A stretch of DNA of 32,000 nt from Desertibacillus haloalkaliphilus. GTDB taxonomy: Bacteria > Bacillota > Bacilli > Bacillales > KJ1-10-99. The stretch lies in contig NZ_JAHPIV010000018.1 of the NCBI RefSeq assembly GCF_019039105.1, positions 1 through 32,000 of the forward strand. The letters are read 5' to 3'. Shown here piece by piece: positions 1 to 15,716 of this stretch (the stretch's first letter is position 1; every line of letters begins with the position of its first letter). Both the position numbers and the translations under genes were made by a program. The notes beneath the pieces are model-generated. The model was not told the DNA's origin and made no database searches. It was given only the letters and a program-made list of their open reading frames with translations.

Positions 1-605
1 GTTTGATACCTATGACTTAAAGGAACAGACTGCAATTGGTGAGAAACAACTAAACGTATTGAAGGAGTTGAATTGGAGGAATGTTTCACATTAATTATGA
101 TGGGACCGACAGGTGCCGGGAAGACTCATTTATCAGTGGCCCTAGGGATACATGCGGTTGAGAATGGATATAAAGTGTCTTTTATCTCCATGAGTCACCT
201 CATGTACATCTTAAAAACAAAAGAATACATCGGTAAATCTAAAACCAGATATAAAAGAATTATAAATTCAGACTTAATCATCATTGATGATGTTATGTAT
301 ATGACCTATGAGGAACAGGAAGCTCACTTTTTCTTTCAGTTTATTTATGACCTATATGACAAAGCTGCTTTTATCCTAACATCAAATAAAGGACCAGGTG
401 AGTGGGGGAAATTCCTCGGAGACCCCACTCTAACAACAGCCATATTAGATCGTCTCTTGCATCGAAATGAGATTCTCACTTTCGATGAAGAGGCAGATAG
501 TATTCGAATGAAGTATAGAAAAGCATTATTTGATCCGCAAACTGTTGAATCTTAATTGTGGAAAGTTGTTTGAAGTTATTTGTGGAAAATTGTTTAATTC
601 TACTT
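1..605 (+). mobile_element. IS21-family insertion sequence, right-hand portion (helper gene plus terminal repeat region); the rest lies left of the window
   Basis: IstB-type ATPase ORF. Downstream are two copies of TGTGGAAARTTGTTT (557-571, 581-595), as expected for the multi-repeat ends of IS21-family elements. The exact terminus is not determined (~600-610). Confidence 0.65.
2..555 (+). pseudogene. istB: IstB-like IS21 helper ATPase, 5'-truncated by the window and apparently frameshifted
   Basis: Frame 1 from nt 73 gives Walker A GPTGAGKTH, Walker B LIIIDDV and LDRLLHR. The expected upstream residues FDTYDLKEQTAIGEKQLNVLKELNW are in frame 2 (nt 2-76), which stops at 92-94. Frame 1 has stops before nt 73. 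A frame change near nt 74-80 is therefore needed. Confidence 0.6.
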
Positions 606-1068
606 GACGGTTACAATAATATTCCTTTAACTCAGTGGCATTATCTTTCCATTCCACTAGATGTCCGTTGACTATCTGTTGAAGGACATCCAAGCACCGA
701 TGCCACCCTGCAGCGGTATTAACTGCCCATGAATCGTCGTCAAAAGTATGGGTGAAGATCATTCGAGAACCTTTATCCTCTTCCTGCAAAGATATGTTCA
801 CCAGATCACCTTCTTCACGGAAACCAAATAAATATGGCTTTTCAAACTCTGTGATAGTAGCCTTATATGTTGTACCTTCACCATCATCGAAGCCAATTTC
901 ACCACCAAGTCTGAGATCCATCTCCCCTGTGGCAAAAGGGTACCATTGGGAGAAATAATTAGAAGTTGTGAGGACACGGAATACATCTTCTGGATTTTGA
1001 GGGAAAGATCGTTCAAATCTTAAAGCATATCGACCATTTGATTCATGTAATTTACCATATTCATTCAT
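526..1068 (-). CDS. SRPBCC / AHSA1-like (START-fold) domain protein; the C-terminal ~25 aa appear to be read-through into IS sequence
   Basis: The sequence has the general look of Bacillus SRPBCC/AHSA1 family proteins (RFERSFPQNPEDVFRVLT..., WYPFATGEMDLRLGG, GWHRCLDVL). The tail ELNNFPQITSNNFPQLRFNSLRIK is the translation of the IS repeat region. Confidence 0.6.
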   Translation of the reverse strand: MNEYGKLHESNGRYALRFERSFPQNPEDVFRVLTTSNYFSQWYPFATGEMDLRLGGEIGFDDGEGTTYKATITEFEKPYLFGFREEGDLVNISLQEEDKGSRMIFTHTFDDDSWAVNTAAGWHRCLDVLQQIVNGHLVEWKDNATELKEYYCNRQVELNNFPQITSNNFPQLRFNSLRIK

Positions 1069-1597: not shown

Positions 1598-3865
1598 CTA
1601 ACTTCCAGATTTTTCGTTATTTATTACCCTAAACCCATTTTTGAAGTACCTCTCAAGAGAATACAAAAACTTATCATCCGTAATCCAAAGCATATTGAGA
1701 TCCTTGGAACTTTTGATTTTATTTTTCAAATAATTTAATTCTTCTTTTTTCACCCAATGAGGAGTAATGTAATTACCGTCTGGTAAAAAATCAAAATCTA
1801 AGTTACTTTCATCTATATATATTTGTTGCCCTAATAATAATAACTCCATTTTTTTCATACAATATTTTATTGTTCTTTTATTAATATTAAAAGAACTTTC
1901 CCCTTTTGTATAATTATCTTCAAACGAAAACACATCACTTTCAAAAGGGTTAGTTGAACTTAAAAAAGAATGATAATATTCAACCAATTTTTCATTATCA
2001 AAGTTAGTTACAAGAAACTTAACTAAAAAGCCGGTTGATTTATGGTGAGAAATTTCAATTGACTTAAATAAACATTGAAATAAGATTAACATTGAAATAT
2101 TTTCGTATTGTTCTAAACCATGTTCTTTACTCCTCTCTCTTAATACCTTGAACTTATTTTCTAATTGTTCCTTTCTCTTTTCATTTATAGAAAGAAGTAC
2201 TTCTTTAGCCTTACGAGGTATCTTCTTACTACTATTTAATTTTCTTATACTTGTGTTTATATCTTTCATTTGTTTTCGTATTAAATCCTGCTCAGCGCTA
2301 GTCACACCCTTTGTTAATGAATACGACGCGTCAGTTAATATATTCAAGTCATCTTTTGAAATAACTTTTAATATGAGCGTCCTATAGACTAAAAATATAT
2401 GTTTAACTTCAAAGGTAATAATTTCACCATCAAAGCTTTGTTGATTCTCCAATTCTGATACTGAAGTTTCCAAGAATTCAATCAAAAAGGGCACCCCATC
2501 AGTTTGGTTATTACAAATTGAGGTTGCTAACTCCCCAAGTGACTTCAAATAGATTTGGAGCAAATGTTTATACTTATTCTCGAGCTGCTTAACCGTATTC
2601 TCATCAAAGTTAGTTTCCCCTATCACGTTATCTTTTCCTACTCCAATTACCTGTTCATTATATTCGTCGTTAGTTTGTTTGATCTTATCATCAGTCACAG
2701 TGACTATTTCAGAGAGCGGGTTCCTCGGCTTTAACTGATTAAAGTGTTTAATCGCAGTTCGAGCAAAATCCAAATTGTGATTATTTATTAAAAACATAAC
2801 TAATGAAGTATAATTTTTAATAACTAACGAGTACAACTCTTGATATTTATCACGGTCTTCCGATATGATGTAAAACATTATACTATTTTCTTCTTGGTTG
2901 GGATCTCTTGAATTTTCCATTAAGTCTTTAATTAATGTCCTAAAACTATGGAACTGTTCATCATAAATTTTGTACATATTTTTATCTACTGCCATTTTAA
3001 GCATTTGATAAATACTTTCAATTGTATACTCAATATTACTATAATAATTTTCAATCAAATTCCGATTAAAAGTATTAGCATCTTCATTACTCAGATATGA
3101 TATAGTCCTAAACCTTTTTTCCAAATCTAATATTGAATCAAAAAGGATATACCTAATATTTATAGTTCTAAATAACTTTTTTAAAGACTTCATTAATAAA
3201 AATAAAGTTATGATCACTAACGATATCCAAATATCGATCCGACTAATTTCAATGTTTGTTGCTACTAAAGATGCATTCAAATCTTCACTTTGGCTTGTTA
3301 TTACATAATTTAAATGATAACCGTATATGATCGTTAGAAGGTTAAAGTAAATAAAAACTATTAAATAAACATTTTTTGTCAGGTCGTTTATTAATGATTC
3401 AAAAGAGGTCTTTTGTACCCTATAGATAAACAAATAAAGAGTGATACTAGCGGGTAAAATAATTGTCAGCGCTCCAGAAAAACCCATTAATAAGTCCGAT
3501 GTTAATCCATCAGATAGTTCATGAAATCCATATTTTCGATTAAAAAAAATGGTAGATATATTATCAATTCCTAAATTAGGCAATATAAAAAATGCAATTA
3601 TATAAATACATAAGAATATAATTATTGAAGTGAAAAAGTTTGTTAAAATAAATTTATAAAAGCTCACAGTATATAACCTTAAATACGCGACCGTTACTTG
3701 AACCTTTTTATTACCAAAAAACCGCCTATAAAACTTAGTATTAAACATTTGGGATTTTAAATCTAAAATGGTTTGATATTTAATATCTTTTGATAAGTAA
3801 TTAAATATTTCTAATATAAATAAGATTGAGATTAAAATAATAGTGAGAGTTAACAAATTACCCAA
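1598..3865 (-). CDS. 755-aa multi-pass membrane protein with a large uncharacterised soluble C-terminal domain (candidate toxin/effector partner of the upstream Panacea gene)
   Basis: Long ORF. Five hydrophobic segments lie in the first ~230 aa; the remainder is K/E/N-rich with no motif I recognise. SD AAAGGAGGGG lies directly upstream. The TTG at 3865 is only 2-3 nt from the SD, and the in-frame TTG at 3856 has better spacing. Confidence 0.8.
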   Translation of the reverse strand: MGNLLTLTIILISILFILEIFNYLSKDIKYQTILDLKSQMFNTKFYRRFFGNKKVQVTVAYLRLYTVSFYKFILTNFFTSIIIFLCIYIIAFFILPNLGIDNISTIFFNRKYGFHELSDGLTSDLLMGFSGALTIILPASITLYLFIYRVQKTSFESLINDLTKNVYLIVFIYFNLLTIIYGYHLNYVITSQSEDLNASLVATNIEISRIDIWISLVIITLFLLMKSLKKLFRTINIRYILFDSILDLEKRFRTISYLSNEDANTFNRNLIENYYSNIEYTIESIYQMLKMAVDKNMYKIYDEQFHSFRTLIKDLMENSRDPNQEENSIMFYIISEDRDKYQELYSLVIKNYTSLVMFLINNHNLDFARTAIKHFNQLKPRNPLSEIVTVTDDKIKQTNDEYNEQVIGVGKDNVIGETNFDENTVKQLENKYKHLLQIYLKSLGELATSICNNQTDGVPFLIEFLETSVSELENQQSFDGEIITFEVKHIFLVYRTLILKVISKDDLNILTDASYSLTKGVTSAEQDLIRKQMKDINTSIRKLNSSKKIPRKAKEVLLSINEKRKEQLENKFKVLRERSKEHGLEQYENISMLILFQCLFKSIEISHHKSTGFLVKFLVTNFDNEKLVEYYHSFLSSTNPFESDVFSFEDNYTKGESSFNINKRTIKYCMKKMELLLLGQQIYIDESNLDFDFLPDGNYITPHWVKKEELNYLKNKIKSSKDLNMLWITDDKFLYSLERYFKNGFRVINNEKSGS

Positions 3866-3888
3866 CCCCTCCTTTCTTATATAGTAAC

Positions 3889-3921
3889 AAAAAAAAACGG
3901 AGTGGGTCTCCGTTTTTTTTA
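3889..3921 (-). terminator. Intrinsic (bidirectional-looking) terminator between the Panacea gene and the 755-aa gene
   Basis: A-run 3889-3897, stem ACGGAG (3897-3902), loop TGGGT, stem CTCCGT (3908-3913), T-run 3913-3920. On the minus strand the hairpin is followed by a run of 9 U. It overlaps the stop codon of ORF 3919-4401. Confidence 0.7.
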
Positions 3922-4401
3922 CATATAATTTATGTTTATTTCGTCCTTGTAAAAATCAAACATATTTTCTATAGATATAATACTCCTGCTTCTGGATTGG
4001 GGGCTTTTATTACCACGAGCATTCTTCCATGGATCTTCATTGTGGGTTCTCATTTCAAGAGTCTTCCCAGACTCATGCCCGTATTTATTCCACACGAAGT
4101 CTAGAACAAATGTAGCAAATTCGTCTTCATCCAATTCCGTCTTTCCAACATAGGTAGGGATGTCATCATATCCATAATTAGAATACTTTTGCCATAACTT
4201 TCGACAAACCGGACCGTGAACCCAAGCCTCAAACTCACAATCATTAATTAACCTTTCGTGTGTTCCCCCACTAATCGCTAAATAGTAAGCCTCTCCATAA
4301 AATGTTAATTTTTGCAATTTGAGTGGATCGATTGCCCATATTGTCCCTGGTGAGCTTTTCCGCAAGAAATATTTCGCTACTTCTTCAACAGAATATACCA
4401 T
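3919..4401 (-). CDS. Panacea / DUF4065 domain protein (GepA/SocA-like, PanA-type putative antitoxin)
   Basis: Motifs LKLQKLTFYGEAYYLA and EFEAWVHGPVCRKLWQKY are characteristic of DUF4065 as I recall it. SD AAGGGGG lies ~9 nt upstream of the ATG. Confidence 0.7.
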   Translation of the reverse strand: MVYSVEEVAKYFLRKSSPGTIWAIDPLKLQKLTFYGEAYYLAISGGTHERLINDCEFEAWVHGPVCRKLWQKYSNYGYDDIPTYVGKTELDEDEFATFVLDFVWNKYGHESGKTLEMRTHNEDPWKNARGNKSPQSRSRSIISIENMFDFYKDEININYM

Positions 4402-4802: not shown

Positions 4803-7442
4803 TTATAGGGCGTTTTGCAAATCCTCCCACTTACGTCCAAACATCCTGGCATGGCGTTTTGTCAAAAATGAATTATCATACTTTATTTCGGCTGGTGGTT
4901 TCATGTGGCAAATAAACGCATTTTGCATTTCCTTTCCAGCTCGGACAGATACAATTGCATAATGCATTGGCAATCGAGAAGCATCTTCAATCGTAATCGT
5001 TGGCTCTAGCCGGTGTTTTGATAGTTCAAACGTTTTTGTGTGATCATTAGCAAATAAGAATTGTTGGACACCGCCACCCTGTAAATTCTCTTGTAAGCTC
5101 TGGGGTAACTTGTTCCAATGGTGAAAAGCATATAACGAACCAAGACGCTCTTTTCTCCCTTCTGTACCAATACGCCCCATTAGTTTTGTTAATCCTTCTG
5201 TTGTGTATTGCTCAGGCTCATTAAATACCACGAAGCAGCCATTCTTTTGATCAGCTTTACTCATGAGCATACGTGTCATGAATGTTTTTAGCGTCACCCA
5301 ATGGACCAGCGTTTTAGTCGCTAACTCACCTAGCTTACGGTTAGGTATACGAATAATAATAACCTTACCTTCCTTCATCCACTTCTCAAAGTCCACATCT
5401 TTCTTTGGTGGTTGAGCAAATATGTCAAAAAGAGTATCGTTATCAAAAAAGTCACCTAATCGATTAAGTACAGGATCAGCTTTACTCCCCAATTCTTCAT
5501 TCGTCCCCCATTGTATTAATTCGTTCGCTAATCTTATATTCCCTTCGTTCATTAACTGCTCGATGCGTTCTAATCTATAGGATTCATCTTCAATAATTCG
5601 TTTAATGTTATACAGGGACCCTCCCGCTGACTTGGCAGCCGTTTTTAGGTAGCGTTTAGAACGTGATAAACCTTCCATATCCCCAAAAAAGTCAATTACC
5701 TCATCTGCAAATCTCGAAGCGCCCTTTCTCCCTAACTTTTCAATAACCTCCGTTAGGTCCAACGGCACAATATATTCCTCATCACTTAAATCGATATCAA
5801 TGATCTTATCAGGTGGCAAAGTATCCCTTATACCGTCGGCCATTCCTCTTTCTCCTTCTTCAACAATTGCTTCTGGAATAACTGCACTAATTCCATGATT
5901 TAAACAGCCATCAATTATCCAATTTTTTATAGCGGTGTCTTTACCAGCACCTTGACCACCAATGAACACATAACCTCTATAGAAGGTGTCAGGGTTCGTC
6001 ACAGGCATTGATATTGGTATCTTAGTATCCTTATACTCCGCTAACCCTAATGGAATCCCCTTTCCAGTTCTCATGGCCTTTGGTATGTCAACTTCTGTTT
6101 TGGTTTTAGTGCTCAACGCATCATCATAACGCCTTTGGAGTTCTTGGGATGGCATTTGTAACGCTAACCGGTTCATCTCATCAGTACTTATTAAATTGAC
6201 GTCAGCATCCATTTTAGACCGTTTGGATAGTCTCAATTCATTAATTTCTCTAATCGCATCAATTCGTTTTCCATTCACCTTCACTTTTATTCCATGCAGC
6301 TCATTGTTTTCTGCCAGCTCACTCATTGAAAGTGACAAGGTTTCACCCAGAGTTTCTCTTGTTAATTTATCGTTAGAATGAGCAGATACTCTGATTTTTG
6401 ATTTAAAAACAGGTTGGTTGATCTTTTCGCGACTGGCATTACTCAAGCGAGCTGCACTTATTTCATCTTCAAGGGAGTACCCTTTTTCGACCACCTTTTC
6501 TTTCTTAAAGCCTTTATCGGATTTAAAGAACACATTAGAAAACGCCTGGAATGTATCGGTTAAAAGATCATTGATTTCATTAATAACACCTGCCACACCG
6601 GTTTTAACCGCTTTTGTCACCTTTCCACTGCTTAAATTTGCACGTTGTGGAACTTTTCCTTTTTGTAACTTCTCCATCGCCCACTGAGCACTTTTTACCC
6701 ACTTTTGACGATTTTCAGCTTCATTGCATATAGATAATCTAGCCATGTCACCATCGTATTGCAATTCATCAACTGTATTTAATATAGAAGAAATCGGTGT
6801 TTTTGTTTCCGTGGCGTTAGTATTCATGGAAAAAATGTCATGTTTGAGGTATTTCATATCTTGAACAACTGTGTTTGCTTGTGGGATCTGTAGATCATCA
6901 ATCGAAGCATCTTTTATTGTGGCGTTCATTTTATTCTCAAGCTTTCGTTTTAGTTTTAGTGCTTGATATTCAGACGTAGCGACATAAAATTCAATTTTCT
7001 TTTCACCTTTTACTTGCTTAAAAACAACATCAAACCAAAAGTAATCTTTTTCTCTATACCTAAACTTGAACCCATCACGTTCCAGCCTTGATCTCGGGCA
7101 TTCATACATTTCATACATTTTATAAATGGACCGCCATAACCTTTTATTATTGTTTGTTATTTTTGAATGTGGGATGATTCTATATACCACCATTTTGTTT
7201 CGCTCCACTTCAAAGAAATCATCCCATTTAACAGCCTTTGTTTTCGTGAGTAGACGCTTGAACTTACTGCTCAATTTTTCATTTTCGGGTATAACATCAA
7301 TCACTAGTGCAGGTTTGCCACATCTGCTTTTATCAGGATAGTGGTAAACCGTTTCTTTTGTATCTAGGATTTCAATTTCCGTTTTCTCTCTAACGACAGG
7401 AAGGTTTTTATCATCTAACATAATGAAGTTAGGCTCCTTCAT
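4803..7442 (-). CDS. ~879-aa P-loop NTPase of the FtsK/HerA/VirB4-VirD4 (ASCE) type, with a ~490-aa unassigned N-terminal domain
   Basis: Walker A-like GGQGAGKDT (nt ~5934-5960). Walker B-like CFVVFNEPEQY (nt ~5205-5237), followed by GRKERLGSLYAFHHWNKL, which resembles the post-Walker-B motifs of T4SS ATPases. The likely start is the ATG at 7442, overlapping the M23 stop (ATGA), with GGAGG 7 nt upstream. The track start at 7490 is probably an over-extension. Confidence 0.55.
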   Translation of the reverse strand: MKEPNFIMLDDKNLPVVREKTEIEILDTKETVYHYPDKSRCGKPALVIDVIPENEKLSSKFKRLLTKTKAVKWDDFFEVERNKMVVYRIIPHSKITNNNKRLWRSIYKMYEMYECPRSRLERDGFKFRYREKDYFWFDVVFKQVKGEKKIEFYVATSEYQALKLKRKLENKMNATIKDASIDDLQIPQANTVVQDMKYLKHDIFSMNTNATETKTPISSILNTVDELQYDGDMARLSICNEAENRQKWVKSAQWAMEKLQKGKVPQRANLSSGKVTKAVKTGVAGVINEINDLLTDTFQAFSNVFFKSDKGFKKEKVVEKGYSLEDEISAARLSNASREKINQPVFKSKIRVSAHSNDKLTRETLGETLSLSMSELAENNELHGIKVKVNGKRIDAIREINELRLSKRSKMDADVNLISTDEMNRLALQMPSQELQRRYDDALSTKTKTEVDIPKAMRTGKGIPLGLAEYKDTKIPISMPVTNPDTFYRGYVFIGGQGAGKDTAIKNWIIDGCLNHGISAVIPEAIVEEGERGMADGIRDTLPPDKIIDIDLSDEEYIVPLDLTEVIEKLGRKGASRFADEVIDFFGDMEGLSRSKRYLKTAAKSAGGSLYNIKRIIEDESYRLERIEQLMNEGNIRLANELIQWGTNEELGSKADPVLNRLGDFFDNDTLFDIFAQPPKKDVDFEKWMKEGKVIIIRIPNRKLGELATKTLVHWVTLKTFMTRMLMSKADQKNGCFVVFNEPEQYTTEGLTKLMGRIGTEGRKERLGSLYAFHHWNKLPQSLQENLQGGGVQQFLFANDHTKTFELSKHRLEPTITIEDASRLPMHYAIVSVRAGKEMQNAFICHMKPPAEIKYDNSFLTKRHARMFGRKWEDLQNAL

Positions 7443-8125
7443 TTCATCCCTCCTAGAATGCAGATAGCCAAAATCAACGCACCAAACCACCAGGCAAGAG
7501 TTTTAATCATCCCACCTTTACCTACCATCGATGAGAAGATCATAAGGACACCAGCTGCAATTGTCCCATAACCCATAATGTCAGGTAAATTAGCAACAAA
7601 CCACATCCATATATCTGTTGTGACTTCCTGTATAAAGTTAGCGAACGGCTTTAACACAAGCTCAGTTTCTTTTCCGATGACCCAATCTGAGAACTGATTA
7701 AATTTCTCCAAAAAGAAGTTTGTGTTTGAATTTTCGATATGACCGCTAATAGCACTAATACCGTCCGCAAAAGGTGTAGGATCAACATATTCGCCATCTG
7801 GTGACTTCAATGCAAAATGCAAATGTGGTCCAGTGCTATTACCTGTATTACCGCTAAAACCGATAGTGTCCATAAAGTTAACAGATTGCCCTTCTTTGAC
7901 TGTGATCTCACTCAAATGACCGTATATGGCTTGCGTTCCGTCCTCCAATCGAATGTAAACACCGTTACCAATTTTCTCCCCATCCTCAATCACACGCTCA
8001 ATAACACCATCACCAACACTTCTTAATTCCGTACCTGTTTCCATCCCTAAATCAATTCCGCTATGTGGCCTGTTGTCTCGTACTTCTGATAATTCACCGA
8101 ACGGGCTCGTTAGTTTAAATTTCAT
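7439..8125 (-). CDS. M23 (LytM-type) metallopeptidase with two C-terminal transmembrane helices
   Basis: HSGIDL (HxxxD) and GPHLHFAL (HxH) motifs with the intervening GNGVYI...YGHL beta-core. The C-terminus has hydrophobic stretches IAAGVLMIFSSMV and LAWWFGALILAICILGG. No N-terminal signal peptide is seen. Confidence 0.8.
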   Translation of the reverse strand: MKFKLTSPFGELSEVRDNRPHSGIDLGMETGTELRSVGDGVIERVIEDGEKIGNGVYIRLEDGTQAIYGHLSEITVKEGQSVNFMDTIGFSGNTGNSTGPHLHFALKSPDGEYVDPTPFADGISAISGHIENSNTNFFLEKFNQFSDWVIGKETELVLKPFANFIQEVTTDIWMWFVANLPDIMGYGTIAAGVLMIFSSMVGKGGMIKTLAWWFGALILAICILGGMK

Positions 8126-8133
8126 ACGATCAC

Positions 8134-8478
8134 CTATATTGTTTTTAGAAAATCTCTAATGTCTATTGCATGACGGGCAATGATATATCCACAAGAAACA
8201 CCTATAAGGATTTCTAGCCCTTTGGTACGATGCCCCAACCCCCAAGCACAACCAGCAAACATAATGACTAAAACTACACCAGCATCAATCATATTCATGG
8301 CTGATCCGTGAACATTTCCAAATGTCCCGTCTACTCCTGCAGCTAATGCCAATTTAGGCACTAACAAAACTGCACCTGCCATTGATGCTGACAATACTTT
8401 AATTTCAGTATTGTTTTTCTTTTCTCTCCAATCGCGACTCATAAAATCTCTAAAGTTGATCGCTTCCGTTTTAGCCAT
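8134..8478 (-). CDS. 114-aa membrane protein (signal-like segment plus two hydrophobic helices; VirB2/VirB3-like topology)
   Basis: Segments VLSASMAGAVLLVPKLALAAG, then AGVVLVIMFAGCAWGLG and ILIGVSCGYIIA. SD AGGAGGGG lies upstream. The stop is 8 nt from the M23 start. Confidence 0.6.
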   Translation of the reverse strand: MAKTEAINFRDFMSRDWREKKNNTEIKVLSASMAGAVLLVPKLALAAGVDGTFGNVHGSAMNMIDAGVVLVIMFAGCAWGLGHRTKGLEILIGVSCGYIIARHAIDIRDFLKTI

Positions 8479-8540
8479 TGTACCCCTCCTGAATAATTTG
8501 TTTTAAAGCGGTCATAATAACCAGCAAAGGAGGTCATCAA

Positions 8541-8609
8541 ATGGTATTTACGACCGCTTTAGTTGTTGGCTTTGCTGTCGGAACAGGCGTTAATATTTTG
8601 ATTGGTTAA
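8541..8609 (+). CDS. 22-aa hydrophobic peptide MVFTTALVVGFAVGTGVNILIG (candidate type I toxin-like or small membrane peptide)
   Basis: Not in the ORF track (too short). A perfect SD AAAGGAGG (8526-8533) lies 7 nt before the ATG. A strong plus-strand terminator follows immediately. The ORF is antisense to the 3' end of ORF 8590-8901. Confidence 0.45.
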   Translation: MVFTTALVVGFAVGTGVNILIG

Positions 8610-8901
8610 TAAACACTTTCGGAGCTGATTGCTGGCTCCGTTTTTTTAGTTGCTCGAGCCGATCTGATGGAGATTGTTTAGGTTGCGGTGTCATAACAGA
8701 TTTATCATTTTGAATATCATCTTTTTCGCCTTCATTTTTCGTTTTGTCACTCTTATTACCTTGCTTTTGTTTTATATCCTCCAAGATCAACTTTTTTACA
8801 TATCCACTAAAATTACGCCTGCTGATGTTCTTCAAAATGAGTTGATCTTCTTCATTTGTCTTATTAAATGATACAGACTTCACGAATCTGTTTTTGCTCA
8901 T
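8590..8901 (-). CDS. 103-aa protein: RHH-like N-terminal DNA-binding segment plus a K/Q/E/D-rich low-complexity tail
   Basis: KSVSFNKTNEEDQLILKNISRRNFSGYVKKLILEDIK has a beta-strand/helix/helix pattern. It is paralogous to the 47-aa ORF at 9289-9432. Confidence 0.5.
   Translation of the reverse strand: MSKNRFVKSVSFNKTNEEDQLILKNISRRNFSGYVKKLILEDIKQKQGNKSDKTKNEGEKDDIQNDKSVMTPQPKQSPSDRLEQLKKRSQQSAPKVFINQSKY
8620..8647 (+). terminator. Rho-independent terminator (plus strand only)
   Basis: CGGAGC (8620-8625), 9-nt loop, GCTCCG (8635-8640), then T7 (8641-8647). The minus-strand version lacks a U-run. Confidence 0.7.
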
Positions 8902-9021
8902 AAGATCACCCTTTTCCTGTACGACATGTATGAGCGAAAAATAATTTTATTGGTACTAGCAAGTTTCGGCTAATGTGTGCATAAGTTATTACACATAACG
9001 TGTAGTAACTTTTCGAGGCTT

Positions 9022-9047
9022 CCCTTCGTAAATGCGAGGGGATTTTT
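9022..9047 (+). terminator. Plus-strand hairpin plus T-run (possible terminator of an antisense or small RNA)
   Basis: CCCTTCG (9022-9028), loop TAAATG, CGAGGGG (9035-9041), then ATTTTT. A 10-bp imperfect inverted repeat at 8985-9009 precedes it. Confidence 0.4.
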
Positions 9048-9067
9048 ACGTTCTGAATTACATTTCT

Positions 9068-9277
9068 TCATTTCCTCTTACAAACAGGACACAAACAATA
9101 ACCTATGTGATACTCAACCCCATTACGCCTTTTGTATTCCTTGTTAACTCCATTCACGAATGATAAGAAACGCCCCATACTATCACCTAAACTCGTTTCG
9201 TATTCAGCTTCCAACTCCATTAGAGCATCATCCACCAAGTCTAGGATATACTTCATCTTTTTATCGCTTATTCTCAT
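9068..9277 (-). CDS. 69-aa hypothetical protein with a C-terminal CxCPxC motif
   Basis: Strong SD AAGGAGG lies 6 nt upstream of the ATG. The gene sits 11 nt after the preceding RHH-like ORF. Confidence 0.6.
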   Translation of the reverse strand: MRISDKKMKYILDLVDDALMELEAEYETSLGDSMGRFLSFVNGVNKEYKRRNGVEYHIGYCLCPVCKRK

Positions 9278-9288
9278 GACAAGCCTCC

Positions 9289-9432
9289 TTATTTTTGTTT
9301 GCTCAACATATCCCTTTCAATTAGTCGCTTCACATAGTTAGAGAAGTTCGTGCGTTGTATGGCGAATAGGTAAAGTTGTTTCTGGTCGGGATCGGCAAGA
9401 TTGAAGCACACGCCTTTGTTTTTTAGATTCAA
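9289..9432 (-). CDS. 47-aa RHH-like small DNA-binding protein (not in the ORF track)
   Basis: TTG start with SD GAGGTGA. Product (M)NLKNKGVCFNLADPDQKQLYLFAIQRTNFSNYVKRLIERDMLSKQK. It shares the RxNFS(N/G)YVK(R/K)LI motif with ORF 8590-8901. It is divergent from the XRE gene. Confidence 0.55.
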   Translation of the reverse strand: MNLKNKGVCFNLADPDQKQLYLFAIQRTNFSNYVKRLIERDMLSKQK

Positions 9433-9506
9433 TGTAGTCACCTCGTTACTTGTTATTTAGTTTCAATGTATGGGTGGATAGCTTGTTTTGATAACAATTT
9501 TTATGT

Positions 9507-9530
9507 ATTTTATCCAAAATTTTACCCAAA
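9507..9530. repeat. Tandem 12-nt direct repeat ATTTTAYCCAAA x2 (candidate operator)
   Basis: ATTTTATCCAAA (9507-9518) is immediately followed by ATTTTACCCAAA (9519-9530). The repeat lies in the divergent intergenic region, at the -35 position relative to the TGgTAAGAT element at 9545-9553. Confidence 0.6.
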
Positions 9531-9544
9531 ATAATCTATAGTTG

Positions 9545-9553
9545 TGGTAAGAT
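9545..9553 (+). promoter_or_regulatory. Extended -10 element (TGgTAAGAT) upstream of the XRE gene
   Basis: TG-n-TAAGAT lies ~40 nt upstream of the ATG at 9592. No good -35 was found. Confidence 0.35.
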
Positions 9554-9591
9554 GAATGTACAGGCATAATTAAAGGAGGTGATACATATAA

Positions 9592-9846
9592 ATGCAGGTT
9601 GGAGTGAAAAGGACGATGAAGATTAAAGTTAGAAGTAAGTTAGGTGAATTACTCGATGAAAGAATGGTGAATAAATCTGAATTAGCTAGATCTATCAACG
9701 CTACACCAAAACAACTTTATGCCTGGTGTTCAAATAAAGAGGACGGACAGGCTAAATCAACACCTTCGGTTGGATACCTCCTACGCTTAAAAAAAGTTTT
9801 AGGTGTTGATATCGAGGATATGTTTGAGGAAATAAATGAAAAGTGA
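9592..9846 (+). CDS. XRE-family helix-turn-helix transcriptional regulator (84 aa)
   Basis: LGELLDERMVNKSELARSINATPKQLYAW is a typical HTH_XRE segment. SD AAAGGAGGTGA lies upstream. Confidence 0.75.
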   Translation: MQVGVKRTMKIKVRSKLGELLDERMVNKSELARSINATPKQLYAWCSNKEDGQAKSTPSVGYLLRLKKVLGVDIEDMFEEINEK

Positions 9847-11989: not shown

Positions 11990-12667
11990 TTACCGTAAAC
12001 GTTGCAGCACAACGCTGTTCAACCAAATCATTTCTGATGCTGTTATTGTGCGGTCTTTGATTTTTCGTAGCCAATCTTGGTCGCTGATCACGCCGTCTTC
12101 CAGTAATCCTTCGACCTGATTTTCTAACACACTCCATTGGTAGTTGGATAAATTCAAATCGTCATCCCCCTTCATAAGCTCTTTTCTTACATCCATTCTG
12201 AATTTATCCATTGAAAACAACTTACCAGGGCAGGATGTGCTTTGACCTGGTATTTCATAATGACCGAATACATCTTTATGAGTTAAATTGTGTTCACGGC
12301 ATTTAGCAGCTGTAATGGAAACTAATTTTCTGTATTGATCGTCACTAATTCGCTTTGCGGGGACGCCATTAACATCTTGGTGAAAATTCCCCTCAGCACA
12401 AATGCCGATATACCTGTGATTTTCACCCTTTGTGTGTGCACCTACATATTCGGTTCCTTTAGCACTTCGTCCATAGTAAACTGTCGCATCCTGCTGAACA
12501 TAGTAGCTGTAAGCAGTACCGTTCCAGCCGATGCTTATGAAATATTCATGTAGTCGTTGTATAGTCCAATACGCTAACGGATGGTGAATTACAATGCCCT
12601 CAACCGACTTCATCTTTTGTCTTCGGTTAGGGAATTTTAAATTAGCATCTTTAATCATGATCATCAT
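11990..12667 (-). CDS. Endolysin: N-acetylmuramoyl-L-alanine amidase (Amidase_2/PGRP fold) with a short helical C-terminal domain
   Basis: GIVIHH..., YSYYVQQDATVYYGR, GAHTKGENHRYIGICAEGNF and H...CPG are typical Zn-amidase motifs. It is the last gene of the lysis cassette. Confidence 0.8.
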   Translation of the reverse strand: MMIMIKDANLKFPNRRQKMKSVEGIVIHHPLAYWTIQRLHEYFISIGWNGTAYSYYVQQDATVYYGRSAKGTEYVGAHTKGENHRYIGICAEGNFHQDVNGVPAKRISDDQYRKLVSITAAKCREHNLTHKDVFGHYEIPGQSTSCPGKLFSMDKFRMDVRKELMKGDDDLNLSNYQWSVLENQVEGLLEDGVISDQDWLRKIKDRTITASEMIWLNSVVLQRLR

Positions 12668-12938
12668 CCTTCTTCTTGTACTGTTTTAACATTTGATGAC
12701 CAAACACACTCACACCAGCCACTATAACGCCTTGTATAACCGCATCTACATTGAATCCTAACAAAGCGATAGAAAACCCTACACCGATGAATAGAACGAT
12801 GTAGGGAATAAGCCAATCTTTTATGTTAGGCGTCTTTTTCAACATTGTGCCTAGTACTAACAGAACAGGTATTAGTATATAAGCTTCTTCGATTATGTGA
12901 TTCACTAACTCGCTAATTTCCAATTCAAACACCTCCAT
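12651..12938 (-). CDS. Holin (XhlB / phage_holin_4-like; three TM helices and a charged C-terminus)
   Basis: Three hydrophobic helices, then KQYKKKDDDHD. It lies between the XhlA-like gene and the amidase, with overlapping gene ends. Confidence 0.75.
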   Translation of the reverse strand: MEVFELEISELVNHIIEEAYILIPVLLVLGTMLKKTPNIKDWLIPYIVLFIGVGFSIALLGFNVDAVIQGVIVAGVSVFGHQMLKQYKKKDDDHD

Positions 12939-13140
12939 TCAAAAAGAAAGCCAACACTGCTGCTATGATCGTTCCCACGACTAACCTCAATATCCAAGTT
13001 GTATTTGCTTTGATAGAGGATATATCTTCTTTGATGTCTTTGATATTAGATTCAGCCACAGCTAATCGTGTTTTTACATCAACCATGTCGCTCTTTACTT
13101 CCCCGACATCATTTTCTAATTTATTGACACGTTGTTCCAT
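12925..13140 (-). CDS. xhlA: XhlA-like lysis-associated membrane protein
   Basis: N-terminal coiled coil (NKLENDVGEVKSDMVDVKTRLAVAESNIKDIKEDISSIK) plus a C-terminal TM (WILRLVVGTIIAAVLAFFL). Its position is as in the PBSX xhlA-xhlB-xlyA cassette. Confidence 0.7.
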   Translation of the reverse strand: MEQRVNKLENDVGEVKSDMVDVKTRLAVAESNIKDIKEDISSIKANTTWILRLVVGTIIAAVLAFFLNGGV

Positions 13141-13160: not shown

Positions 13161-14114
13161 TTATTTCAACCTCTCTAAAATAACCGCTAATTCAGCTCTC
13201 GTTACTGTTTCATTAGGCTTAAACGTCCCGTCAGGATAACCAGCTAACTTGCCTTTTTTAGCCTGATTTTCGATAGCCGTTTGTGCCCAATGTCCTTCTA
13301 CGTCCGCAAATTTAACTTGGCTCACTTCTCTCACCTCCTCTTTTACAGGGTTTTCTTTCATTTCTGGCACGTCGGGCAAAATAAAAAGGCCATGACCGCT
13401 ACGTGTGTCAAAGCCTTCTTCGTATTTGTCGATGCAATTATCATGAATAAAACGTCTCGCTTGATCTGTATTGAGCTTTTCGCCTAGTGCAGACATGTAA
13501 CATGCCAACATCCCACAAACAGCCGGTGCAGAGGCGCTAGTACCTCCAAATGACATGTAACCGTTCTGTTTGTTATTAGGATTAGGGACATTGATATCGG
13601 TGAACGCTACTGCATCTAACATTTCCCCACGGTTTGAATATCCCGCAACATGTCCCCATCTTTTTTGATAAGCACCAACGGCTATTGTCCAATCAAAGCG
13701 TGCTGGAAATGAGATACGGTCATTATCCTGGTTACCACTACTGCACACAAGTGGTATATTCAAACCACTTAAGTATTCATCGATTAGCTCATATGTTGGC
13801 CTTGTAGCTGTGAAACTGCAATTAACAATATCAACATCGTTATCGACTATCCATTGTGCCATCTCCTCTTTACCTGACCCAAACCAAGGCATAGAGATAA
13901 TGCGAGCTTTCGGTGCAAACTCACGGACAATGCTACATACGTGAGTGTTGTGTCCGATCTCCCCGTTATGATTCTCTTTAAACGGTAATTCAACCTCAGT
14001 CTCTTCAAGAGGACTATGGAGGGTGTCTAACACAGCTACTGTGACACCCTGACCCTTATAGCCTTTTTCGTGAAAAGTAATTATATTTGACTTTTTGAGG
14101 ACTTCTGAATTCAT
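13161..14114 (-). CDS. Subtilisin-like S8 serine peptidase with one C-terminal SLH (S-layer homology) domain
   Basis: Triad contexts VAVLDT (Asp), GHNTHV (His), GGTSASAP (Ser). The C-terminus FADVEGHWAQTAIENQAKKGKLAGYPDGTFKPNETVTRAELAVILERL matches the SLH motif. Confidence 0.8.
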   Translation of the reverse strand: MNSEVLKKSNIITFHEKGYKGQGVTVAVLDTLHSPLEETEVELPFKENHNGEIGHNTHVCSIVREFAPKARIISMPWFGSGKEEMAQWIVDNDVDIVNCSFTATRPTYELIDEYLSGLNIPLVCSSGNQDNDRISFPARFDWTIAVGAYQKRWGHVAGYSNRGEMLDAVAFTDINVPNPNNKQNGYMSFGGTSASAPAVCGMLACYMSALGEKLNTDQARRFIHDNCIDKYEEGFDTRSGHGLFILPDVPEMKENPVKEEVREVSQVKFADVEGHWAQTAIENQAKKGKLAGYPDGTFKPNETVTRAELAVILERLK

Positions 14115-14784: not shown

Positions 14785-14922
14785 TACATGATACCATAGT
14801 AGGGATGAAGGGAATGAAAAATAACACTAGCTAATGCTGCGTCCAATGAACCAAAAATTAAAAGGTTTATTACACAATTTATCGAAAGTTAGAACACATA
14901 ATAACTTATTGAGGTGAACAAA

Positions 14923-15716
14923 ATGTCCGATGGAAATTTTTTTACTGACTTATCCAAATCAATAAAGGTCCCAGCTGATATTACCAAGTCTGCACTTGAA
15001 CCGCCAGCTAAACAAATCGGCGAAGGACTTGGCGACTTATTCTTTATTGCGTTTTCTCCTTTAGCAAAAGCTAGAATTAAAAAAGAGCTTGATATTCAGA
15101 AATTCAAAGAGGAAATTGAGAAAGAATTATCTCTTATTCAACCCGATAAAGTCTCTGAGCCCTCTTTAAATATTGTTGGTCCAGCTTTAGAAGCTTCAAA
15201 GTATTATATTGAAGATGAAGAGATTCGCTCTATGTTTGCGAAGTTGATAGCATCATCGGTTAATAGTGACAAGAAAGATAAGTCACATTCTTCCTTTGTA
15301 GAAATAATAAAACAGCTTTCACCTTTCGATGCAAAAAACTTTAAGTATTTGTTTTTAAATACTCATTTGCATATTGCTGTTGGAAAAATAAAAACCAAAA
15401 ATAAAAATGGAGGAGAAAATACCATTATTGAAAATTTTTCCCCTTTCCTGAATTACACATCAAGAACCAAGATCTTTACTCTTCTTCAATTGACAACCTA
15501 ATCCGCTTAGGACTAATAACAATAGATCATGAACTGCATTATACAATGGAAAGCCGTTACGATGCACTTCTTAATCATCCAGTTTATTTAGCCTATAAAA
15601 ATGCTTATGATAATCAAAATACACAAGATGGAGATAAAACAAAAGAATTGTTCTTGAAGAAATCCATCTGGGACTTTACTAGTTTTGGTAAATTATTCGG
15701 TCAATGTTGTTTATAA
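14923..15716 (+). pseudogene. Abi-alpha (DUF4393)-like abortive-infection family gene split into two frames (frameshifted or recoded)
   Basis: Frame 1 (to 15501) gives PPAKQIGEGLGDLF..., EEIRSMFAKLIASSV..., SSFVEIIKQLSPFDAKNFKYLF. Frame 3 (15432-15716) continues with SSIDNLIRLGLITIDHE...FGKLFGQCCL. The likely start is the ATG at 14923 after GAGGTG. Confidence 0.6.

Follow-up and report, generated by a model that had tools for sequence, protein, structure and literature searches.

The M23-fusion form of the SPP1 gene 31 to 32 cassette in a Desertibacillus haloalkaliphilus prophage, a putative reduced type IV secretion derivative

The cassette and its relatives

The virulent siphovirus SPP1 carries a cassette of four genes, 31, 31.1, 31.2 and 32, which Godinho et al. 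proposed in 2018 to be a membrane translocon (PMC6316719). In their report gp31.1 and gp31.2 have transmembrane (TM) segments, and HHpred likens the C-terminus of gp32 to TrwB, VirB4 and FtsK. Neither 31.2 nor 32 is essential, and the cassette is transcribed from the early promoter PE5, shared with the lysis genes 25 and 26; the module is accessory, being expressed early in SPP1 and dispensable in the laboratory. A search of the literature after 2018 found no paper on the function of SPP1 gp31-32 or of phage VirB4-like proteins. The subject here is a cassette of the same kind in a 32,000-nucleotide (nt) stretch of DNA from Desertibacillus haloalkaliphilus (NZ_JAHPIV010000018.1, positions 1-32,000, forward strand), called the window. 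Its best overall explanation, at a probability of about 0.55, is that of a phage-borne machine derived, with heavy reduction, from a type IV secretion system (T4SS) or conjugative pilus. The cassette consists of the following genes:

8590..8901, minus strand: gp31-like protein, 103 amino acids (aa); phrog_17574, E=1.7e-24
8134..8478, minus strand: TrbC/VirB2-like membrane protein, 114 aa; phrog_5422, E=6e-25
7439..8125, minus strand: fusion of an M23 peptidase domain and a gp31.2-like module, 228 aa; PF01551, phrog_7767 and phrog_20592
4803..7442, minus strand: ATPase, VirB4-class by predicted structure, homologous to SPP1 gp32, 879 aa; phrog_5156, E=2.4e-279

All four proteins match the PHROGs of the SPP1 cassette, which are families without an assigned function (17574, 5422, 5156 and, covering the C-terminal portion of the M23 protein, 20592), and the window cassette almost certainly belongs to the SPP1 31/31.1/31.2/32 family. 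An earlier note, made from the letters of this DNA, could not say whether the cassette was already a named family; the locus is in fact the M23-fusion form of a known phage cassette. Shared with SPP1 are the four homologous proteins, gene order, strand, a stop/start overlap and an antisense micro-open reading frame (micro-ORF). The window differs in that its gp31.2-like subunit bears an N-terminal M23 domain, in that it is a temperate myovirus-type prophage and not a virulent siphovirus, and in having a short gp31-like paralogue and a divergent helix-turn-helix (HTH) gene upstream.

The four genes are co-directional on the minus strand (8901..4803), with 111 nt between the 103-aa and 114-aa genes and 8 nt between the 114-aa and 228-aa genes. 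The stop of the 228-aa M23 gene overlaps the ATG of the ATPase gene by 4 nt (ATGA), and a strong Shine-Dalgarno sequence, AGGAGGG, precedes the ATPase start codon. The co-directional genes and every sequence feature named in the earlier note are thus present, all on the minus strand. The translational coupling that it proposed for the whole set stands for the step from the M23 gene to the ATPase gene and nearly so for the step from the 114-aa to the M23 gene, and fails at the 111-nt gap between the 103-aa and 114-aa genes, which contains the antisense micro-gene. The prophage setting was also read correctly. The cassette lies about 3 kb past the holin/endolysin genes of a myovirus-type prophage whose structural genes in the window include tail sheath, tape measure and baseplate; XhlA, holin and amidase genes (11990-13140) are upstream of the cassette, and on its far side are a Panacea-domain gene and then a 755-aa low-GC gene.

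A census of 78 loci comprised the window, 43 contigs from IMG/VR, 25 contigs from genomes and 9 records from collections of phages and plasmids, with one phage in some cases represented more than once; the 25 genome loci were obtained with a 10-sequence alignment and all belong to the NE clade of ATPases described below, and the taxonomic survey is incomplete. By jackhmmer the VirB2-like protein is present in 66 of these loci, the two-TM (2-TM) module of the gp31.2 type in 65, the gp31-like protein in 59 and the M23 domain in 23. The VirB2-like gene is directly upstream in 66 of the 78, the cassette genes are always on the ATPase strand and in a fixed order, and the distance from the end of the 2-TM gene to the ATPase start is -105 to +17 nt in most loci. 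When the neighbours of the 70 loci with a full-length ATPase were clustered by BLAST, the four cassette families alone exceeded 45 loci; those next in frequency, which were amidases, HTH/ImmA repressors, integrase, ParA, YqaJ, YolD and the actin-like ALP, reached 20 loci at most. With the four families in the same order and on the same strand at about 60 further loci, their arrangement is far from random. The co-occurrence elsewhere that the earlier note looked to is therefore real and extends over virulent and temperate phages, while its suggestion of a lysogeny-specific accessory does not hold, as virulent SPP1 and virulent Herelleviridae carry the cassette.

By tblastn the ATPase is present in 109 phage records, including SPP1, Geobacillus phage GBK2 and B. 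thuringiensis phage 0105phi7-2, with further carriers among PBC1-like B. cereus siphoviruses and, at 24-30% identity, the Herelleviridae. Carriers comprise siphoviruses, myoviruses, plasmid-prophages and megaphage G, and they infect Bacillota that nearly all form endospores (Bacillaceae, Paenibacillaceae, Alicyclobacillus, Clostridium, Desulfotomaculum and Thermoactinomyces). A megablast of the 4.1-kb cassette against phage records gave no match, the relatives being seen at the protein level only.

The cassette proteins

The ATPase matches phrog_5156 over residues 67-878 and is 64.5% identical to SPP1 gene 32 by tblastn; its match to a Desertibacillus haloalkaliphilus protein is 100% identical. 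It is without a TM segment and is composed of an N-terminal domain of predicted VirB4 type (about aa 75-490) followed by a C-terminal RecA-like ATPase domain. The Walker A motif is GGQGAGKDT (residues 495-503), the Walker B and catalytic residues are VVFNE (738-742, within VVFNEPEQY at 738), and a further motif, GRKERLGSLYAFHHWNKL, is located at residue 762, with EGRKERLG...AFHHW spanning 760-776. The unusual Walker A, the Walker B region and the N-terminal domain of about 490 aa had all been noticed earlier and are confirmed; the domain, which could not then be placed, is now assigned to the VirB4 type.

A full-length AlphaFold2 model (35 homologues; predicted local distance difference test, pLDDT, 77) was compared with the PDB by Foldseek. 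The best matches were R388 TrwK/VirB4 chains, at E 4e-13 to 1e-10 over about 900 aligned columns; HerA, TrwB/VirD4, TdpA and Cag-beta followed and were aligned to the C-terminal ~450 residues only. The N-terminal domain modelled alone (AlphaFold2, aa 60-488, pLDDT 63) gave 14 significant PDB matches, all of them TrwK/VirB4 chains (E 7.6e-6 to 9.4e-4, TMq 0.36-0.40); the first non-significant match had E=0.013, and neither HerA nor FtsK was matched. Because this domain significantly matches VirB4 chains alone, the ATPase is set apart from VirD4, HerA and FtsK, and by both its N-domain and its full-length fold, as modelled, it is VirB4-class. An independent HHpred note in GenBank OQ317942 and Godinho et al. 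(2018) agree with the VirB4 class. Of the label 'VirB4/VirD4-like' given earlier, the VirB4 part is thus upheld by both models and the VirD4 part is not, and the ATPase does not model as a terminase or helicase, the outcome that the note had named as telling against its reading.

Identity with a VirD4/TrwB coupling protein was rejected on three grounds, namely the lack of an N-terminal TM anchor, the VirB4-like N-domain, and the alignment of TrwB to the C-terminal ~450 columns only. Identity with HerA or FtsK was rejected because their matches cover the ATPase core alone and no HAS-barrel or FtsK alpha/gamma flanking domain was detected. By sequence, phmmer of the ATPase against PDB entries gave TdpA alone, marginally (E=0.11), and a profile search against the PDB sequences gave nothing.

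A profile search of 1.84 billion cluster representatives returned 1,161 relatives of the ATPase at E<=1e-3, and 114 diverse full-length relatives were aligned to the family hidden Markov model (HMM) for comparison of the Walker motifs. GK[ST] in Walker A is combined with DE in Walker B in 90 of the 114, and GKD with NE in 19; mixed pairs are essentially absent, GKD being coupled with NE in 19 of 20 proteins. Within the close family G-x-x-G-x-G-K-D and N-E-P-E-Q are invariant. The GKD/NE combination looks like a compensated swap in one ATPase clade, in which the change of Ser/Thr to Asp at the Mg2+ ligand would be offset by that of the Walker B Asp to Asn (D502/N741). In 53 diverse relatives, whose identity is 20-50%, Lys501, Glu742 and Arg661 never vary, and as the Walker Lys and catalytic Glu are among them the GKD/NE ATPase is probably active.

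The 114-aa protein, homologous to SPP1 gp31.1, has a long charged leader and a hydrophobic segment ending KLALAA|GVDG, a predicted signal-peptidase site. The mature part of about 65 aa contains, by hydropathy and direct reading, two hydrophobic helices (about 63-81 and 88-103) with a basic loop, GHRTK, between them. In the family alignment the leader is variable and charged, the hydrophobic stretch ends AxA and the ~65-aa remainder is highly conserved. TrbC/VirB2 is the top Pfam match for 19 of 33 family members (best E=2.8e-5), one cluster of the family bears a precomputed PF04956, and a distant ATPase relative on C. botulinum plasmid pCLK (27% identity) is directly preceded by a protein above the Pfam TrbC cut-off. 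By these sequence features the 114-aa protein is TrbC/VirB2-like, with the window member itself scoring under the Pfam cut-off. Of the VirB2/B3 topology earlier ascribed to it, the leader ending ALAAG and the two helices stand, with the likeness being to TrbC/VirB2. Many members of the family are named 'glycosyltransferase' in RefSeq and some 'xanthine/uracil permease' by JGI, and some ATPase homologues are named 'MsbA'; all these names look spurious and may mislead automated annotation.

In the 228-aa protein the M23/LytM domain occupies aa 20-116 (nt 7778-8068; PF01551, E=3.7e-25, 88.4 bits against a cut-off of 28.7) and retains its HxxxD motif at residue 21 (H21/D25) and HxH at residue 101 (H101/H103), so that the peptidase appears active. 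It has no N-terminal signal peptide, and its TM helices are at about 183-201 and 206-224. The gp31.2-like module (aa 132-226, nt 7448-7732) comprises a helical segment, the motif LPDIMGY and the C-terminal 2-TM hairpin. The M23 form accounts for about one third of the census loci, and the domain is always N-terminal to the 2-TM module or, in distant myoviruses, replaces it; judged from sequence, it is an optional N-terminal fusion on a conserved 2-TM subunit. The loop between the TM helices holds 100 K/R against 2 D/E in 49 proteins, with 32 K/R before TM1, where the segment is acidic. Because this charge bias puts the loop inside, the N-terminus is predicted to be outside, which would place a fused M23 domain at the wall.

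The peptidase motifs, the missing signal peptide, the two C-terminal TM helices and the stop/start overlap described in the earlier note are all confirmed. Its concern that the M23 protein might have no link to the ATPase is answered by the fusion of the domain to a conserved cassette subunit whose stop overlaps the ATPase start; being so fused, M23 is not a stray lysin. The VirB3-like component that it expected was not found. VirB3/PrgI identity of the 2-TM protein was rejected, as 27 members gave no such Pfam match at E<=10 and the hairpin is C-terminal, not N-terminal.

In the 103-aa gp31-like protein the N-terminal 45 aa are conserved (KxVxFN...NFSGYVKKLI); a low-complexity linker joins them to a C-terminal motif, ERLEQLKK, that is likewise conserved (ERLxxLK in the family). 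By eye, from the alignment only, the N-terminal part follows a strand-helix-helix pattern. The label 'RHH-like' (ribbon-helix-helix) that it had been given finds no support, since there was no RHH match in Pfam and a family-profile search against the PDB found nothing relevant. The protein is presumed to be a DNA-binding regulator or adaptor.

The antisense micro-gene and flanking genes

The gap between the gp31-like and VirB2-like genes holds a small transcription-unit-like arrangement on the opposite strand:

8490..8519, plus strand: promoter-like element, TGAATA (8490-8495), 17 nt, CATAATA (8513-8519)
8526-8533, plus strand: Shine-Dalgarno sequence of the micro-ORF, AAAGGAGG
8541..8609, plus strand: micro-ORF of 22 codons, MVFTTALVVGFAVGTGVNILIG, sharing 20 nt with the 3'-terminal part of the 103-aa gene
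8620..8647, plus strand: intrinsic-terminator-like hairpin and T-run, antisense in the 3' end of the 103-aa gene

The promoter-like element overlaps the 5' untranslated and Shine-Dalgarno region of the VirB2-like gene on the opposite strand. Across loci the micro-peptide has 17-24 codons and the consensus MH[VI]AIAVxVGxIIGxLVNxFVG, one hydrophobic helix in which GxxxG occurs along with a conserved Asn; the SPP1 counterpart is MHFFISLLIGYIVGVLV (NC_004166 24460-24513). When all six frames of the 78 loci, with 21,325 small ORFs, were searched with an HMM built from 13 peptides, 46 loci were matched at E<1e-3, every match being antisense at one position, with the best off-site match at E=0.08. 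Entropy by codon position is 0.82/0.59/1.29, and synonymous to non-synonymous codon differences number 1271:1898 in the micro-ORF frame, the only one with a synonymous excess, where the remaining sense frames give 358:2875 and 252:2909; the substitution pattern is of coding type. A 20-nt inverted repeat around the start of the micro-gene in the window (8504-8561) is not kept in other loci (mean z ~0), and because the start-codon hairpin is not conserved, conservation of the micro-ORF is not explained by RNA structure. Exact look-up of six micro-peptides in a 15-billion-protein collection found none of them; Rfam gave no match on 8200-9700, and Pfam none for the micro-peptide.

Upstream of the micro-ORF, GGnCATA[C/A]TA is conserved among 39 non-identical loci. 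The -10 pattern CAT[AT][AC]TA occurs in 27 of these 39, against a background of 0.3 per kb, and the two-box pattern G[AC]AT[AG]-N17/18-CAT[AT][AC]TA occurs 4 times in 1.17 Mb, all four at the micro-gene. Of 41 non-identical loci, at least 14 have a clear hairpin and T-run downstream of the micro-ORF. The sigma-G consensus is TGAATA-17/18-CATACTA, and that of the sigma-F -10 is GGnnAnAHTR, and by its likeness to these the micro-gene promoter resembles a forespore-type (sigma-F/G-like) promoter. Sigma-F promoters are distinguished by a G upstream of the -10 and sigma-G promoters by an A downstream of it (PMC3789822). The micro-gene may shut off the operon by antisense specifically in the forespore, or its product may be a small membrane cofactor or a peptide akin to type I toxins.

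With type I toxin-antitoxin loci of Bacillus prophages, such as txpA/RatA and bsrG/SR4, the micro-gene shares a small hydrophobic peptide, a promoter and terminator of its own, convergent overlap with the 3' end of a neighbour, and carriage on a prophage. In contrast to these, its peptide, at 17-24 aa, is far shorter and lacks a charged tail, and the micro-gene overlaps a protein-coding operon and has a forespore-like promoter.

Further genes lie upstream of the cassette:

9068..9277, minus strand: ORF of 69 aa with a C-terminal CxCPxC motif, between the two gp31-like genes; no Pfam or PHROG family
9289..9441, minus strand: short paralogue of the gp31-like N-domain, 50 aa; phrog_4223 (E=8e-13), phrog_17574 (E=4.7e-5), and a jackhmmer match
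9592..9846, plus strand: Cro/C1-type HTH protein, 84 aa, divergently transcribed; Pfam HTH_26, E=2.2e-6

The gene of the 50-aa paralogue is probably the first of the leftward transcription unit of the cassette, and it is uncertain whether the CxCPxC ORF belongs to the cassette. A divergent HTH gene is found at the corresponding position in 17 related loci and in phage 0105phi7-2, and the 84-aa HTH protein is a candidate regulator of the shared intergenic region. On either side of the start of the 50-aa gp31-like gene are two 21-nt direct repeats (9416-9436 and 9450-9470; identity 90%, spacing 34 nt), and a 28-nt palindrome (9506-9533) is present in the divergent intergenic region shared with the HTH gene; both are candidate operators. 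Candidate binding sites of the gp31-like protein are the repeats at 9416-9470 and further ones at 8783-8915.

In 13 divergent loci and phage Shanette an ALP segregation gene and then a short gp31-like paralogue adjoin the cassette, either upstream (loci L009, L020, L022, L026, L058, L060, L064, L066 and L074) or downstream (L019, L023 and L057), with L006 and Shanette (L007) completing the set. These loci span deep divergence, as their ATPases are 29-73% identical to that of the ALP-bearing locus L022. The window has the short paralogue (9441..9289) without ALP. In Shanette a distant cassette lies between the ALP gene and a Replic_Relax (PF13814) gene, the latter overlapping the 3' end of the ATPase gene. 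The ALP and Replic_Relax neighbours suggest a recurrent link of the cassette with DNA partition or relaxation genes.

Several other genes of the window merit mention. A SocA/Panacea antitoxin-domain gene (3919-4401, minus strand, Pfam E=7e-12) has a strong promoter-like site of its own at 4472-4444 and is followed by a 755-aa ORF (region 1598-4401, minus strand) with a hydrophobic N-terminal region and very low GC (25-31%). The 755-aa ORF matched nothing in Pfam, PHROG or PADLOC and the Panacea gene matched no PADLOC model; together they may form, where the prophage ends, a toxin-antitoxin pair of PanA type or a defence pair. The structural arm contains a defence moron, an Abi_alpha (abortive infection) gene inserted on the opposite strand (14914-15501, plus strand) between the tail-fibre region and an S8/SLH protease gene. 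That protease, a subtilase (S8) fused to an S-layer-homology (SLH) domain (13161-14114, minus strand), is directly upstream of the XhlA/holin/amidase genes and is an unusual wall-targeted protease in the lysis neighbourhood. At the left edge of the window (73-1068) are a 5'-truncated IstB (IS21 helper ATPase) ORF and an AHSA1/SRPBCC-family gene, and their presence there suggests a prophage boundary around 1.1-1.6 kb.

Proposed function, alternatives and known systems

The strength of the proposal differs from part to part. That the cassette is a membrane machine of VirB2/VirB4 type derived from a T4SS is likely. That it extracts pilin and assembles a filament or conduit is a tentative proposal by analogy, at a little under even odds, and that DNA is the substrate is doubtful. 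In the scheme envisaged, an oligomer of the VirB4-like ATPase would dock on the inner face of the membrane and spend ATP in extracting the processed VirB2-like protein from the bilayer, which would be assembled into a short filament or conduit, by analogy with VirB4 as reported by Kerr and Christie in 2010. The 2-TM subunit, with its N-terminus out, would bring the M23 domain to the wall, where it would cut peptidoglycan cross-links locally and so let the structure cross the thick Gram-positive wall. The gp31-like protein would most likely regulate the operon or serve as a DNA adaptor, and its C-terminal motif could bind the motor in a manner resembling ParR-ParM or TraM-TraD. DNA or a DNA-protein complex would be the likeliest cargo; this is the weakest step of the scheme and is weakly hinted at by the ALP and Replic_Relax neighbours and the putative DNA-binding adaptor.

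A number of observations weigh against a reduced T4SS. The VirB4 assignment comes from predicted structures with pLDDT 77 and 63 and low global TM-scores (0.3-0.4); Pfam and NCBIfam gave no significant T4SS model on the window ATPase, and 53 diverse relatives searched against Pfam gave scattered weak matches, with CagE_TrbE_VirB in 0 of 53 and AAA_10 in 1 of 53, weakly. The window 114-aa protein matches TrbC/VirB2 PF04956 at E=0.0017 and 18.9 bits, under the gathering cut-off of 27.9, and hhalign detected no relationship between its family and the TrbC-like protein of pCLK. The 2-TM protein is without VirB3 similarity, and if its N-terminus is outside only a short loop faces the cytoplasmic ATPase; it would also be unusual for an N-terminal M23 domain of 180 aa to be exported when no signal peptide precedes it. 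An RHH fold and DNA binding of the gp31-like protein are without profile support. Neighbour clustering of the 70 loci showed no VirB6, VirB8, VirD4 or relaxase conserved with the cassette, and to our knowledge all characterised T4SS require a VirB6-type component. Filament formation, secretion and DNA transfer by the cassette are proposals drawn from sequence, models and analogy.

Among other explanations, one links the cassette to sporulation: it would anchor or translocate the phage genome, trapping it in the spore or keeping it out, with the micro-gene as a forespore switch or as a membrane peptide that shuts off the operon or modifies the machine. The micro-gene promoter fits the sigma-G/sigma-F consensus, the strict form GHATR-N17/18-CATWMTA is found 4 times in 1.17 Mb, all there, and GG upstream and A downstream of the -10 are conserved in keeping with the published rule (PMC3789822); the almost exclusively endospore-forming hosts and the actin-like segregation genes beside the cassette in 13 divergent loci and Shanette point the same way. 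However, a -35 box can be recognised at no more than 11 of the 39 loci, the host range may merely follow phylogeny, and the SPP1 cassette is an operon of early vegetative infection (PMC6316719); the explanation is unlikely. A more specific form, in which a minimal VirB2/VirB4 machine, wall hydrolase and DNA adaptor would make up a sporulation-coupled phage organelle that moves or places phage DNA at the sporulation septum or membrane, the micro-gene being a compartment-specific off-switch or cofactor, is decidedly unlikely. If true, phages of endospore formers would control the carriage of their genomes into the spore, by what would be the first T4SS-derived apparatus functioning in a viral life cycle. 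A distinctly unlikely role is superinfection exclusion or competition between elements, with a membrane complex that blocks DNA entry of phages or conjugative elements or ejects foreign DNA. Its components are membrane-located, the temperate-phage cassette sits in a moron-rich arm (with Abi_alpha at 14914-15501 and the Panacea gene at 3919-4401 in the window), and in SPP1 the module is accessory, non-essential and early-expressed (PMC6316719). Yet no cassette protein matched the PADLOC models at E<=0.01, and the strong conservation of a pilin-like protein and a wall hydrolase would go unexplained. Large virulent myoviruses carry the cassette, for which late exclusion in a short lytic cycle would be of little benefit, and the exclusion systems known to us consist of small membrane proteins or lipoproteins and have no motor of VirB4 size.

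The remaining explanations dispense with a translocation machine. A soluble DNA helicase or translocase for replication, recombination or partition, the membrane proteins being unrelated or a mere tether, would accord with the GenBank annotation 'DNA helicase or translocase', with the lack of a TM segment in the ATPase, with the resemblance of its C-domain to HerA, FtsK, TrwB and TdpA as well, and with the ALP, ParA, YqaJ and Replic_Relax genes near several loci. This is very unlikely, given that the N-domain matches VirB4 alone and neither the HerA HAS-barrel nor FtsK domains, that the 2-TM stop overlaps the ATPase start here and is within -105 to +17 nt of it in most loci, and that the membrane genes are the sole universally co-conserved neighbours of the ATPase. 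Auxiliary lysis or wall remodelling, in which M23 and its membrane partners would aid lysis or phage release under regulation by the ATPase, is hardly credible: M23 is common in phage endolysins and tail lysins (PHROG matches) and the cassette is downstream of the lysis genes, sharing PE5 with genes 25 and 26 in SPP1, but two thirds of loci, SPP1 included, are without the M23 domain, the window has a separate holin, XhlA and amidase set, and SPP1 without 31.2 and 32 lyses normally (PMC6316719).

The reduced T4SS derivative accordingly remains the preferred explanation of the cassette. The envelope translocation apparatus suggested in the earlier note gains from the modelled VirB4-class ATPase and the TrbC/VirB2-like protein, and as an idea it had already been published for SPP1. 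Beyond the accessible part of that publication (PMC6316719), what is new here is the VirB2-like nature of gp31.1, the predicted VirB4-type N-domain, the apparent Walker swap and the micro-gene, to which are added the census of loci, the argument for N-out topology and the view of M23 as an optional fusion. The cassette is among the most widespread uncharacterised gene sets of Bacillus-type phages, and if a VirB4 motor and a VirB2-like pilin work without VirB6, VirD4 or relaxase, it would be the smallest known machine of T4SS type and a new phage activity. The question is made testable in SPP1 and B. subtilis through K501, E742, the predicted D502/N741 pair, the predicted N-out hydrolase carrier and the micro-gene. 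As the micro-gene also reminds us, annotation passes over conserved ORFs of some 20 codons when they lie on the 'wrong' strand, and a 50-year-old model phage is no exception.

Compared with known systems, the ATPase shares with R388 VirB4/TrwK (7O42, 7O43, 8RTD) a two-domain organisation of about 800-900 aa, a predicted VirB4-specific N-fold and a RecA-like C-domain. As in conjugative T4SS, where virB2-virB3-virB4 operons are found, a pilin-like gene encoding a long leader and two helices lies just upstream, and a cell-wall hydrolase is associated, comparable to VirB1, PrgK and CwlT. The cassette is unlike conjugative T4SS in matching no Pfam VirB4 model, in having no VirB3, VirB6, VirB8, VirB10, VirD4 or relaxase, in its GKD/NE Walker motifs, in a hydrolase that is an M23 domain fused to a 2-TM protein, and in being phage-borne, strictly virulent phages included. 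The loci of pCLK and of Shanette (gp156-gp150) have ATPases 24-28% identical over most of their length. In pCLK the gene upstream of the ATPase is above the Pfam TrbC cut-off, and in Shanette the ATPase is in a module with the actin-like ALP and small ORFs. Both differ in having canonical GK[ST]/DE motifs and in that no gp31.2-like protein, gp31-like protein or micro-ORF was detected in them, and Shanette has in addition the Replic_Relax protein overlapping the ATPase 3' end.

A further likeness is to the archaeal Ced and Ted systems of DNA import, which are cellular systems composed of VirB2-like CedA1/TedC, the polytopic VirB6-like CedA and VirB4-like CedB. We know of no hydrolase or gp31-like protein in Ced or Ted, and these differ from the cassette in their polytopic VirB6-like platform and in being cellular DNA importers. 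Likened by description only, they share with it a minimal monoderm derivative of VirB4 and VirB2 without coupling protein or relaxase, and they show that very reduced sets of T4SS type can move DNA.

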